The position numbers and the translations under genes are program-made. The notes under the pieces were generated by a model, which saw nothing but the letters and a program-made list of their open reading frames with translations, was not told the DNA's origin and searched no databases. A DNA stretch of 64,000 bases from the NCBI GenBank assembly GCA_945862455.1, contig CAMAXU010000001.1:15124-79123 (forward strand), read 5' to 3'. Of the stretch, positions 40,790-53,683 are shown in pieces. The first letter of the stretch is position 1. Each line of letters starts with the position of its first letter. The stretch is from Rickettsia typhi (GTDB lineage: Bacteria; Pseudomonadota; Alphaproteobacteria; Rickettsiales; UBA1997).

Positions 40790-41187
40790 TTAACGGCGAC
40801 AGCCAATTTTTAGGATATAAAAATTTCCTCAAATCAGAATTAACAGTTGCCGAAAATCTTAAATTTTATGCCAAACTTTCCGCCACCAAAGCAGCACTTT
40901 CTCCCGCTTTAAGTTTTTTTCAGCTCACAAATTTAGCGGATAAAAAAGTAAAAACCCTTTCTGCTGGCTGGCAAAAACGCGTGATGTTGGCGAAGCTTTT
41001 ATGCTGTCCAGCAACTGTTTGGATTTTAGATGAGCCTTCAAACAATCTTGACAAAGCGGGAAAGGAAATGTTACACGGATTAATCAAAGCCAGAATCAAA
41101 GAAGACGGTTTGGTGATCATGGTAACGCATGAAGAAATGTTTTTTGATTTGGGTCCGTGCTTAAATTTAGAAGATTTTTCTTTTTAA
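40790..41187 (+). pseudogene. Truncated copy of ccmA (3' two-thirds, no Walker A), inverted relative to the full gene at 53072-53683
   Basis: It translates in frame to NGDSQFLGYKNFLKSELTVAENLKFYAKLSATKAALSPALSFFQLTNLADKKVKTLSAGWQKRVMLAKLL...EDFSF* and has 9 aa differences from CcmA aa ~72-203. I estimate nucleotide identity at about 90-93% by eye. Homology ends exactly at the stop codon. Confidence 0.85.
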
Positions 41188-41411
41188 CTTCTTTCATTAG
41201 AAATTTCTGCCACAATCAACTTTGCCTGATTCAAAACAGTTTCAGTTGCCAATTTTTGCATATTTGGCAGATAACCAAACTTGCGTAAAACTCTTAATTT
41301 GCCCTACCTAAGAAAATTCTTCTTCGCTCTTTATTTTTAGCTAAGTCAAATTCTGTTAAATTTCTAACGATGAATCTGGATTTAAAAAAAGAACTCTAGA
41401 TTGGGTCATAA

Positions 41412-42398
41412 TCACCTATCTATTTCTTTTAACCAGATCTCAATCCCTTCGACAAATTTGAATGATTCAATTGGCTTGAAGACTGTGCTTGGATTTATTT
41501 CTTTGCCCTTTTTTTCGCCGTATTTTTCACGCGTAGAATTACCTACCTTATAAAAAAGACCATTTTCAATAATTTCAATTCCAGCCTTCACTAGCGCCTC
41601 TTTTAGATTTTTGTTCTTCGGATTATCCATTAACTCTTTGCTGAATAAGCAATTCGAAAAATATTTTTGATCAATACTGCTTTTCTCCGTTGGAAGAGTG
41701 CAGTCTTTATCAAAAGTGCAATTTACAAATGTTGTTCGGTAAGTGCCGCCAAGATCAACTCCCTGAAAATAAGTTCTAACACATCTGTTATTCCAAACTT
41801 TTTGAGATCCGCCTTTGCGATCCCAAGCGTCTTGATTAACATCCCTGCTACCTGAGCAATTCTTAGCCTTGATCGCTTTATTCAAAACACCTTTTGCTGC
41901 GTATTCTAGCAATCCAGTTGATTCTAATTTTCTCTTCGTCGAATCTTCCGAACCTTCCACTGCAGTAGCTTTTCTTATCGCCACATCTTCTGCTGACAAT
42001 TTTTCAATCGCAGCATTTGAAGATGAATTCACAGCCTCAAAAATTTTTTCTTCGGTTATTTTTTTTTCTGACTTTGAGGTTAGAATGGTGCTTGGTGGGA
42101 TTGGAGATTCTGAAATAAATGTGACCTTTTTTTGACCGGCTTGACGATTTTGCTGCTTAGGTTTTGGTTTGAGCGGGGTTGTGTGTGTTATGCTTCCGCA
42201 GCGCCTTAAATCATTAGCATGAAAATATCTGGCTCTTTCAAGAGTCATTTTCTGCGTTTCTTCTGAAGAGTCAAAACTGATAACTTTTACTTCAATAGTT
42301 TTTTCCTCATCAGGAATGTTTGTGCCAGACTGAATATATTCGGTTCCTTCAGGTCCAACTTTCGATATTTCCAAATATAACTCTTCCGCTCTCAGCAT
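41412..42398 (-). CDS. Hypothetical protein with a short pentapeptide-repeat-like segment (third ORF of the ART locus)
   Basis: 328 aa from the first ATG, and the frame is open a further 42 codons upstream (to 42524). It contains TYFQGVDLGGTYRTTFVNCTFDKDCTL...YFSNCLFS. It is in the same reading frame as the ART gene. Confidence 0.5.
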   Translation of the reverse strand: MLRAEELYLEISKVGPEGTEYIQSGTNIPDEEKTIEVKVISFDSSEETQKMTLERARYFHANDLRRCGSITHTTPLKPKPKQQNRQAGQKKVTFISESPIPPSTILTSKSEKKITEEKIFEAVNSSSNAAIEKLSAEDVAIRKATAVEGSEDSTKRKLESTGLLEYAAKGVLNKAIKAKNCSGSRDVNQDAWDRKGGSQKVWNNRCVRTYFQGVDLGGTYRTTFVNCTFDKDCTLPTEKSSIDQKYFSNCLFSKELMDNPKNKNLKEALVKAGIEIIENGLFYKVGNSTREKYGEKKGKEINPSTVFKPIESFKFVEGIEIWLKEIDR

Positions 42399-42505
42399 AT
42401 CATTTAATCTAGGCAGCTCTGATGAATTTCCACCCGCCTCAGCTTCACTAATTTTCGATTTTATTGCCCAGATCTTTTGATTAATTGATTCTGCGACGTT
42501 GATTT

Positions 42506-42769
42506 CTATTCCGGAAAATAATTGTCATCTCGCCAATTCCATGGCTGCTTATTCCAAACAACATCCTTTTTGTAATAGCTGTACAAACTTCCCGGAAATT
42601 TTCTGTCATCGGCTACAGATCCAAAAGCGGCTTTCTCTTTACTCACAAGTGGCCTAGGCTTTATTCCGGCTTCATAAAAATCTTTTTCAATCGCATTTAA
42701 TCTTTCCGCCCAGATTTTATTGCTTTCTTCAGTTTTGTCACCTTGCGCATAAAGAATTATTGCCACCAC
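42506..42769 (-). CDS. Small hypothetical ORF overlapping the ART gene 3' end (immunity candidate, or a frameshifted segment of a larger gene)
   Basis: 87 aa from a GTG (no ATG). The frame is open over 42509-42772. It overlaps the ART ORF by 32 nt and the downstream frame by 16 nt. Trp-rich C-terminus VVWNKQPWNWRDDNYFPE. Confidence 0.35.
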   Translation of the reverse strand: MVAIILYAQGDKTEESNKIWAERLNAIEKDFYEAGIKPRPLVSKEKAAFGSVADDRKFPGSLYSYYKKDVVWNKQPWNWRDDNYFPE

Positions 42770-52477: not shown

Positions 52478-52480
52478 TTT

Positions 52481-53047
52481 CTACAAAAAGTTTTTTGCAT
52501 CAACTGGTTTTTTTGCGGCTTCAGTCGCCTCATAAAGCGGCATAGTTTTTACTTGCGCAATTGCGGCAATTATATTGCCTGGAAAAATCTGGATTGAGTT
52601 GCGAAGTGATGCCACCGCAGAATTGTAAAATCTTCTTGATGCTGCAATTTGGGCTTCAACTTCATTATAGCTTTGTTGAGCTTGAAGCATGTTCTGGCTT
52701 GATTTAAGCTCGGGATAATTTTCAGCACGAACCATAAAATTATTCATTTTTTGCGATAATTCTGCCGCAAGCTCTAAATGTTTTTTTAACTCTTCTGGAT
52801 TTTTGGAATCATAATTTTGCGATAATTGTTCACGCAATTTGGTTACTTCAGTAAATATTTTTTCTTCATGTTCCATGAATTTTTTGGCGATGGTTAAAAT
52901 ATTAGGAATTAATTCCAAGCGGTTTTGTAATTGCACATCAACACCAGCCAAAGCTTCTAAAGCCTTGTTACGTCTGCTTATGATGATTGTGTACCAGAAA
53001 TAAAATGCTGCTAGAATTGCAATGATTAAAATCAAATTTCCACTCAT
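52481..53047 (-). CDS. lemA: LemA-family protein
   Basis: N-terminal TM helix plus the LemA pattern (YNSAVASLRNSIQIFPGNIIA, ENYPELKSSQNMLQAQQSYNEVEAQIAASRRFYN). Confidence 0.9.
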   Translation of the reverse strand: MSGNLILIIAILAAFYFWYTIIISRRNKALEALAGVDVQLQNRLELIPNILTIAKKFMEHEEKIFTEVTKLREQLSQNYDSKNPEELKKHLELAAELSQKMNNFMVRAENYPELKSSQNMLQAQQSYNEVEAQIAASRRFYNSAVASLRNSIQIFPGNIIAAIAQVKTMPLYEATEAAKKPVDAKNFL

Positions 53048-53071
53048 ATTACTACCAAAAATTAATTAAAA

Positions 53072-53683
53072 TTAAGAAGAAAAATCCTCCAGATTCAATC
53101 GCGGACCTAAATCGAAAAACATTTCATCATGAGTTACCATGATCACCAAACCATCTTCTTTGATTCTGGTTTTGATTAATCCGTGTAACATTTCCTTTCC
53201 TGCCTTGTCAAGATTGTTTGAAGGTTCGTCCAAAATCCAAACAGTTGCTGGACAGCATAAAAGCTTCGCCAACATCACGCGTTTTTGCCAGCCAGCAGAA
53301 AGGGTTTTTACTTTTTCATCTGCTAAATTTGTGAGCTGAAAAAAACTTAAAGCCGAAGAAAGTGCGGCTTCGGTAGCAGAAAGTTTGGCATAGAATTTAA
53401 GGTTTTCGGCAACTGTTAATTCTGTTTTGAGAAAATTTTTGTGTCCTAAAAATTGGCTGTCGCCGTTAAAATCATCACGAAAATTTTCAATATTATTGCC
53501 GCCCCATAAAATTTCGCCCTGCTTTGCTTTAGAAATTCCGGCGATAATTTTTAATAAACTACTTTTGCCGCAACCGTTGCGGCCTTTGATTATCAAGGCT
53601 GAACCAATGCCCACCGAAAAACCTAAATCGGAAAAGATTTTCTTGTCATCTTTAAAAAACGAAAGATTATTGACGGTAAGCAT
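53072..53683 (-). CDS. ccmA: Heme exporter ATP-binding protein CcmA
   Basis: 203 aa. Walker A GRNGCGKSSLLKIIAG, signature LSAGWQKRVMLAKLL, Walker B VWILDEP. Size and pattern are typical of CcmA. Confidence 0.78.
   Translation of the reverse strand: MLTVNNLSFFKDDKKIFSDLGFSVGIGSALIIKGRNGCGKSSLLKIIAGISKAKQGEILWGGNNIENFRDDFNGDSQFLGHKNFLKTELTVAENLKFYAKLSATEAALSSALSFFQLTNLADEKVKTLSAGWQKRVMLAKLLCCPATVWILDEPSNNLDKAGKEMLHGLIKTRIKEDGLVIMVTHDEMFFDLGPRLNLEDFSS

Follow-up and report, generated by a model that had tools for sequence, protein, structure and literature searches.

Two nested pairs of inverted repeats at the ccmA and rlmJ genes

The window analyzed here is a 64,000-nt stretch of contig CAMAXU010000001.1 (assembly GCA_945862455.1), with positions counted from its first letter. 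Between 40 and 54 kb, the 3' ends of two genes, ccmA and rlmJ, are each present twice in inverted orientation, one pair nested inside the other. Repeats in this region were located by self-BLAST and a repeat finder, and gene identities were assigned using Pfam and NCBIfam; open reading frames (ORFs) of ≥100 amino acids (aa) within 40.7 to 53.7 kb, plus an 87-aa ORF (ORF87), were scanned against Pfam. The family matches agreed with the gene calls for rlmJ, ccmA, lemA, a DUF3137 gene, mlaE, a TonB-dependent receptor, and mreC that had previously been made from the DNA letters and ORF translations (here called the sequence-only reading).

The outer pair aligns positions 40790 to 41190 (plus strand) with 53069 to 53469 (minus strand) over 401 nt, with 33 mismatches and 0 gaps (91.8% identity; E = 4e-164). 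Its right arm belongs to an intact ccmA gene (53072 to 53683; TIGR01189 ccmA, 1.6e-55), of which it forms the 3' end, and its left arm is a truncated copy, referred to here as ccmA'. The inner pair spans 154 nt with 4 mismatches (97.4% identity; E = 1e-69). Its left arm (44664 to 44817, minus strand) is the 3' end of an intact rlmJ gene (44664 to 45545; Pfam RsmJ, 6e-59), and its right arm (51261 to 51414, plus strand), referred to as rlmJ', comprises the last 51 codons of rlmJ, including the stop codon. The inner pair terminates on the final base of the rlmJ stop codon, and the end of the outer pair is effectively the ccmA stop codon. No other long repeat was found in the region by self-BLAST or the repeat finder, and tRNA, Rfam, and promoter/terminator scans of 40 to 54 kb returned nothing relevant, with counts at chance level.

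Both pairs had been recognized in the sequence-only reading, which had estimated an outer identity of 90 to 93% by eye, with 9 aa changes and the frame kept, and had noted that the repeats stop at stop codons and that truncated and intact copies are arranged reciprocally (i.e., truncated ccmA with intact rlmJ on the left and intact ccmA with truncated rlmJ on the right). These descriptions hold, and self-BLAST of the window set the exact limits of both pairs. The lower divergence of the inner pair had also been taken as a sign of two events at different times, an interpretation that the positions of the mismatches do not support. All 4 are confined to the inner 49 nt of the repeat (p = 0.01), where the local divergence (8.2%) is the same as that of the outer pair, and the other 105 nt are identical between the arms. 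Such clustering suggests a tract of conversion or crossover instead of a more recent copy.

A convergent core-gene pair bracketing a variable cargo slot

A scan for RlmJ, using one genome per species, retrieved 25 loci from freshwater Rickettsiales-like metagenome-assembled genomes (loci and contigs are designated below by L numbers). Synteny counts rest on the 22 loci in which rlmJ and ccmA are on the same contig. In all 22, both genes are single-copy, convergent neighbors, and the gene order is ZnuA< TonB< receptor< ORF109< mlaE> rlmJ> gap <ccmA hydrolase> proS> gpmI>, with mlaE on one side of the slot and hydrolase-proS-gpmI on the other. The gap between rlmJ and ccmA is as short as 1 nt in L021 and as long as 8473 nt in L002, and its cargo is unrelated among loci. 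The L002 slot carries a type I restriction-modification (R-M) system with Fic/RhuM, a nucleotidyltransferase pair, and DUF3800. Other slots contain lemA-DUF3137 (L009, L015, and L018), a low-molecular-weight phosphatase (L004, by Pfam; similar ORFs in L006, L008, and L019 by eye only), a pilin-like protein (L014, by Pfam; similar ORFs in L005 and L018 by eye only), or a RecQ-like ORF (L023, from a reading of the sequence only).

The right locus of the window holds cargo of the same kind, namely a DUF3137 gene (51428 to 52477) and lemA (52481 to 53047), both on the minus strand, which were identified by Pfam and are also the slot cargo of L009 and L015. In L009, whose RlmJ is 94% identical to that of the window, the order mlaE> rlmJ> <DUF3137 <lemA <ccmA corresponds to the window layout with an inversion of 44818 to 51260 undone. 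Family scans found no integrase or recombinase domain in the cargo of the window or of L002. In this clade, the convergent core genes rlmJ and ccmA flank a cargo slot whose content varies by strain, in line with the earlier proposal that the ancestral state was a convergent ccmA/rlmJ locus. We infer that cargo is exchanged via the flanking homology. Because slot versions share sequence only inside rlmJ and ccmA, the repeats of the window end at the stop codons of these genes.

Variation was also seen in the vicinity of the slot. A 168-aa ORF without a family match (45555 to 46061) lies between mlaE and rlmJ; its position is occupied by an unrelated 126-aa ORF in L009, by no ORF in L002 (a gap of ~140 nt), and by two extra genes in L022. 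The mlaE-rlmJ interval looks like a second small variable slot. The TonB-dependent receptor gene (47296 to 49371) is 96% identical to that of L002 and only 68 to 71% identical to those of L003 and L009, and the genes around it are 94 to 97% identical to all three alike, which suggests that the receptor gene was replaced allelically. In L075, a strain 98 to 99.5% identical to the window, homology beyond lemA extends precisely to the ccmA stop codon and no further (L075 5817 to 5976; window equivalent, 53074). The new sequence beyond this point contains an ORF whose sole Pfam match is a weak one to the IS1595 transposase zinc ribbon (E = 0.05), and the DUF3137 gene of the same strain has two internal deletions.

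A fragment of a foreign slot version to the left of rlmJ

The truncated ccmA' retains codons 73 to 203 plus the stop codon in frame (131 codons), with 9 aa changes relative to the host ccmA, and is missing both the start codon and the Walker A segment. The two copies differ by 23 synonymous and 9 nonsynonymous substitutions, i.e., a synonymous divergence (dS) of 0.35, a nonsynonymous divergence (dN) of 0.03, and a dN/dS ratio (omega) of 0.084. When substitutions were split over three branches (host, fragment, and L002), 10 synonymous and 7 nonsynonymous changes fell on the branch of ccmA' itself (omega, 0.19), and neutrality was rejected for this branch (p = 7e-4). ccmA', the host ccmA, and the L002 ccmA are about equidistant (8.1, 8.7, and 9.2% at the nucleotide level), and strains of the window's lineage are only 0.2 to 1.8% apart; of these, L031 and L035 carry the same ccmA' fragment. 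Because of this signature of purifying selection and a distance to the host ccmA like that of another lineage's orthologue, we regard ccmA' as xenologous, not as an in-genome duplicate. Judging from its substitutions, the fragment has spent most of its history within a working ccmA of another lineage, and its truncation appears to be recent.

The sequence beyond the repeat adds to this picture. The 108 nt following ccmA' (41188 to 41295) are 90% identical to L002 19239 to 19346, which lies downstream of the intact L002 ccmA, at the 3' terminus of a 396-aa ORF matching Pfam T1RH-like_C (hsdR). What is left of such a gene in the window, hsdR' (41190 to 41294, minus strand), is the 3'-terminal 35 codons for a type I restriction subunit. 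The L036 sequence aligns to 40790 to 41295 as a single 506-nt block. The hsdR remnant matches the type I R-M slot version of L002 and L036 and not the right locus of the window, so the left copy represents another version of the slot. We refer to the 4.0-kb region from ccmA' to the 3' end of rlmJ (40790 to 44817) as fragment F; on the F side, the 19 nt directly following the rlmJ stop codon match L002 and L003.

To its left, F is separated from the 3' flank of mreC by a 54-nt junction filler (40736 to 40789), with homology to L065 and L066 ending at 40735 and homology to ccmA starting at 40790. An 8-bp inverted match (CTGTCGCC and GGCGACAG, with an 11-nt loop) lies across this junction at 40762 to 40797. 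It may be due to chance or be a trace of junction formation; as a fold-back signature, the hairpin was dropped because its complementarity does not extend.

The cargo of F (41412 to 44645) consists of three ORFs on the minus strand, which had been labeled an ADP-ribosyltransferase (ART) toxin trio. None of them has an accepted family match, and no ART domain was recognizable in them by comparison with Pfam, NCBIfam, PADLOC, or PDB sequences; the sole hint for this label is a Macro domain at the C terminus of the neighbor gene's homologue in L033. Two of the three are frameshifted pieces of one gene. tblastn with the L033 and L032 proteins matched 42766 to 42515 in one frame and 42518 to 42189 in another, such that ORF87 (42506 to 42769) and the N terminus of a 328-aa ORF (ORF328; 41412 to 42398) represent two frames of a gene whose intact homologues have 569 and >640 aa. 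The only family match of ORF328 was a subthreshold one to NuiA, and ORF87 and the third ORF, a 635-aa orphan (ORF635; 42738 to 44645), had no match in the four resources. The start of ORF635 lies 18 nt after the rlmJ stop codon, with no predicted terminator between the two genes. Its relatives number only two among 5.8 billion proteins, both in other genomic contexts, and the AlphaFold2 model of its conserved C-terminal domain (pLDDT confidence score, 43) was too poor for a fold search. By these sequence criteria, the left cargo is a decaying two-gene orphan module. No family match was found either for an ORF of the region that had been called HEPN-like.

A displaced 19-kb block and an inverted 6.4-kb segment

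The repeats lie within a 19.0-kb block (40736 to 59734) that is located between mreC and ispA in this lineage only. L065 and L066 (92 to 94% nucleotide identity) match the window at 33612 to 40735 and then jump to 59735 to 64000, with only 10 nt between the two matches, and in relatives with 96, 74, and 61% MreC identity, mreC is directly followed by ispA-200aa-sua5-rnhB-dsbA-PIF1. In L073, and on one contig in L076/L020, the ispA block is followed by rnc-lepB-gpmI-proS-hydrolase-ccmA-rlmJ-mlaE. If B denotes the block from ispA to gatC, S1 the segment from rnc to the rlmJ 3' end, and S2 the segment from the rlmJ body to dsbB, the order B, S1, S2 has become S2, inverted S1, B. The alignments thus place the whole block away from its position in close relatives. 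The sequence-only reading had pointed to synteny in related genomes as a guide to the ancestral order; this order could indeed be read from the relatives, and the displacement of the entire block had been missed.

Inside the block, the 6.4-kb segment from 44818 to 51260 is inverted relative to ccmA-hydrolase-proS in comparison with every relative carrying both rlmJ and ccmA (22 loci). It comprises the rlmJ body, the 168-aa ORF, mlaE, ORF109, the TonB-dependent receptor, TonB-like and ZnuA-like genes, a dsbB remnant (dsbB'), and a copy of a miniature inverted-repeat transposable element (MITE). The right end of this segment had been described as broken ORF debris (50845 to 51250) and proved to be the last ~54 codons of dsbB followed by a decayed MITE. 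dsbB' (50752 to 50913, minus strand) was recognized by tblastn with a 179-aa ORF of L002 (Pfam DsbB, 7e-32). In all relatives, dsbB overlaps ZnuA convergently; the 5' part of dsbB and the upstream genes pgi, tsaB, apaG, and pilB are not in the window. The dsbA gene (~63 kb), unlike dsbB, is intact.

The element next to dsbB' (50905 to 51176) was delimited by aligning the window with L027 and L038. Its terminal inverted repeats (TATACCAAACTAAAAATCTATTGATCGCA...) are both intact in L038, but L027 and the window have lost parts of them. The element matches a 165-nt MITE at a second L038 site (3580 to 3744) as well as copies in L016 (1 to 150), L032 (13190 to 13355), and L035 (9559 to 9656). The 346-nt filler at this junction had no BLAST match in the window, the loci, or proteins, and its MITE part was recognized via the end of L035; no match was found for the 84-nt spacer between the MITE and rlmJ' (51177 to 51260). 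The MITE family has 165-nt and ~322-nt members with terminal inverted repeats of ~29 nt and occurs across genomes sharing only 61 to 98% identity. Near-identical strains differ in their insertions, a pattern suggestive of recent activity.

A MITE is present at the dsbB' junction in all strains, and a 165-nt MITE lies 4 nt from the right boundary of the 19-kb block in L038 only. None is present at the left boundary, the nearest being in L035, 575 nt inside the block. Comparison with L065 and L066 revealed no target-site duplication for the 19-kb block, 10 nt of the empty site having been replaced. The window contains neither a full MITE copy nor a transposase; the sole transposase candidate is the weak zinc-ribbon match at the end of L075. 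The block was moved from after ispA..gatC to the mreC-ispA spacer, a step in which MITE copies probably took part.

A model for the origin of the inverted repeats

We regard the nested inverted repeats as scars of ordinary genome rearrangement. We put at roughly 0.6 the probability of the full chain of events, in which a fragment of a foreign slot version came to lie beside the resident slot and a single inverting crossover followed. According to this model, the window's lineage holds two slot versions, the resident lemA-DUF3137 version and fragment F. The latter consists of the 401-nt ccmA 3' end, the hsdR remnant, the decaying two-gene orphan module, and the 154-nt rlmJ 3' end and would derive from a diverged relative. 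F would have been placed in inverted orientation a few kilobases from the resident slot, giving the order mreC, F, MITE, dsbB'-ZnuA..mlaE-rlmJ> <DUF3137-lemA-ccmA-hydrolase..rnc, (MITE), ispA. At this stage, the block would have been an intact inverted copy of the neighborhood bounded by MITEs, with F at one junction. A single RecA-type homologous crossover between the two rlmJ 3' ends would then have flipped the intervening 6.4 kb, after which the intact rlmJ would read into the foreign cargo and the truncated rlmJ' would abut the resident cargo.

Such a crossover would account for the reciprocal arrangement of truncated and intact copies, for the 4 arm mismatches in the inner 49 nt beside 105 identical nt, and for the distribution of alleles at the variable sites of the arms, with rlmJ' carrying derived alleles and L002 and L003 those of the intact copy. 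The derived single-nucleotide polymorphisms (SNPs) of rlmJ' are common to L027 and L038, and the relatives carry the alleles of the intact copy. Because the arms run to the stop codons, flips leave both genes intact. The earlier proposal that the conserved flanks act as recombination substrates fits this model, since one crossover between the rlmJ arms would produce the present layout.

Several observations weigh against the model. A metagenome scan with ccmA' in search of a donor recovered only the lineage's own copies and L036 to L038, with no intact ccmA that was >95% identical. The MITEs at the junctions may be later insertions into nonessential DNA. The rlmJ arm of F can be called foreign only tentatively, because the 3 or 4 SNPs in rlmJ' may also reflect in-place decay of a native remnant. 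The unflipped adjacency was present in one contig only (L028, from a k = 31 assembly), possibly as a false path through the 105-nt identical core, and the ORF635-rlmJ junction is covered by the window alone. Furthermore, two inverted copies of the neighborhood with reciprocal deletions would give the same end state. The cargo slot and the xenologous origin of ccmA' are accordingly much firmer than the crossover or the role of MITEs.

Alternative explanations

In the version with two neighborhood copies, the 10 kb from ccmA' to dsbB' would be an imported or second copy, joined head to head with the first at dsbB/MITE, and no rlmJ crossover would be needed. On the minus strand, 40790 to 50913 follows the ancestral order dsbB-ZnuA..mlaE-rlmJ-cargo-ccmA, the four illegitimate junctions of the preferred model are needed here too, and decay in place could explain the SNPs of rlmJ'. 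However, two independent deletions must then leave exactly one intact copy of every gene, and the 105-nt identical core is left unexplained. In addition, the 3' half of rlmJ is 99% identical to L028 and L001 and carries the relatives' alleles, the fragment being the derived copy, although this argument is weak because L028 and L001 may belong to this lineage. We consider this history unlikely. Still less probable is an origin by inverted duplication of ccmA-cargo-rlmJ within the genome, as suggested in the sequence-only reading, after which the copies would have diverged and one of them exchanged its cargo. A duplication would place both gene ends twice in inverted orientation, and the rlmJ arms are merely 2.6% diverged, yet a promoterless, truncated ccmA' should decay neutrally, which disagrees with its omega of 0.08 and the rejection of neutrality on its branch (p = 7e-4). 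Its 8% divergence is that of another lineage's orthologue, such as that of L002, compared with 0.2 to 1.8% among the lineage's own strains, and the hsdR remnant points to a different slot version.

The layout could also be a working switch, in which reversible flips of 6.4 or 11.9 kb change the cargo cotranscribed with rlmJ or ccmA. RecA-dependent flips would then serve as a recombinase-free phase switch or maintain a stored silent cassette, changing the cargo read from the mlaE-rlmJ operon. Flips would keep rlmJ and ccmA intact, and ORF635 follows closely on rlmJ, with no predicted terminator. In L028, which is nested among near-identical strains (5/1769 differences), DUF3137 adjoins a stretch of rlmJ of at least 313 nt; L038, although less closely related (32/1769), is in the flipped layout, so a flip back would be implied, and Logan contigs break exactly at the arm boundaries. 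The Logan contigs (L001 and L028 to L030) are derived from a k = 31 graph, which cannot resolve the 105-nt identical core, and the adjacency in L028 may thus be a k-mer artifact; as evidence of both orientations, these contigs were retained as a weak hint only. Moreover, no recombinase was found among the ORFs scanned, the cargo of F is decaying (a frameshift and truncations), relatives manage with one copy, and the layout is fixed across strains 0.2 to 1.8% apart in four other assemblies. A switch, in either form, is in our assessment very improbable. A site-specific invertible element was likewise rejected, because no recombinase was present among the scanned ORFs, as was integration of an element into a gene 3' end with duplication of its att site, because the repeats are inverted, each pair belongs to a different gene, and no integrase was found.

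Finally, the window might be an assembly chimera of two co-occurring strains with different slot versions. The arms differ by 8%, as two strains would, and the window itself seems to derive from a metagenome-assembled genome, given that every near-identical contig comes from a metagenome. Against this, the mreC-ccmA', filler-rlmJ', dsbB'-MITE, and rnc-ispA junctions are not at homologous points, and independent assemblies of other samples, by MEGAHIT and JGI, contain such junctions along with strain-specific SNPs: ENA ERZ27280207 (L027 and L031; 99.8%), JGI Ga0214919 (L035 and L038; 98.3 to 99.3%), and ENA ERZ18671041 (L075). Four other assemblies between them bear out most of the junctions, at those covered in the orientation of the window. 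Assembly error, which the sequence-only reading had named as a possible refutation of the inverted copies, is extremely unlikely as a cause of this layout.

Other repeats in the window

A 119-nt direct repeat (97.5% identity; 17768 to 17886 and 19994 to 20112) duplicates the first 38 codons of purB. Between its copies (17938 to 19970) lie a C-5 cytosine methylase gene (Pfam, 1e-108) and a 329-aa ORF without a family match, inserted between hslU and purB in the pattern described for R-M systems as insertion with long target duplication (PMC2853133). Short GC-rich palindromic repeats, comprising GGACCCCGTCGTGAAGACGGGGTGACA and a 40-nt hairpin, are present at 1960 to 1991, 33375 to 33403, 33434 to 33465, and 33093 to 33180, recurring beside tRNA-Arg and within an intergenic region. 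L035 carries the 40-nt hairpin repeat as well, with an upstream sequence that differs from that of the window.

Comparison with known systems and implications

Hotspots of recombination and integration between conserved core genes, such as the hsd locus of Escherichia coli, have been described from comparisons of E. coli genomes (PMC2617782), and allelic substitution of R-M systems and their insertion with long target duplication are also known (PMC2853133). The rlmJ/ccmA slot resembles core-gene hotspots in that the same pair of genes flanks unrelated cargo in 22 of 22 loci, no integrase turned up in the window or L002 cargo, and the versions are homologous only up to the gene boundaries. Unlike at such hotspots, the window keeps a second, fragmentary version at an ectopic site with both arms, which gives rise to the nested inverted repeats. 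The inverted orientation of the ccmA and rlmJ repeats also sets them apart from R-M insertion with long target duplication, where the repeats are direct. The long imperfect repeats (154 and 401 nt), the lack of a site-specific recombinase, and an intervening segment that is inverted relative to all relatives are features shared with recombinational inversions between rrn operons, insertion sequence (IS) copies, or duplicated genes. The repeats of the window differ from these in being the 3' ends of two different single-copy genes, contributed by a foreign fragment, and the flip would preserve both genes while swapping the cargo downstream of them.

As in Hin/Gin-type systems, shufflons, and type I hsdS inversion systems, a segment bounded by inverted repeats is invertible in principle and could alter expression; in contrast to these systems, the locus has no invertase or integrase gene, long gene fragments take the place of short recombinase sites as repeats, and nothing indicates that switching is programmed. 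The displaced 19-kb block is reminiscent of translocation mediated by MITEs or IS elements, with MITE copies at or near its junctions, but differs in having no clean target-site duplication and no transposase in the window.

No new mechanism or gene system is revealed by this locus, which we regard as an instructive rearrangement and a case study. If true, the improbable switch reading would mean a recombinase-free phase switch or a silent cassette in a small-genome freshwater alphaproteobacterium. The case also bears on how apparent partial gene duplications are read, since synonymous versus nonsynonymous divergence, together with the sequence beyond the repeat, can separate a xenologous fragment from a duplicate. 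The locus provides a well-documented example of the evolution of a core-gene-flanked cargo slot in uncultured freshwater Rickettsiales-like bacteria. In these organisms, slot versions may travel between lineages together with the ends of the flanking genes, a stray version can seed long inverted repeats, and recombination and MITEs may reshuffle a housekeeping neighborhood without breaking its genes, dsbB excepted.

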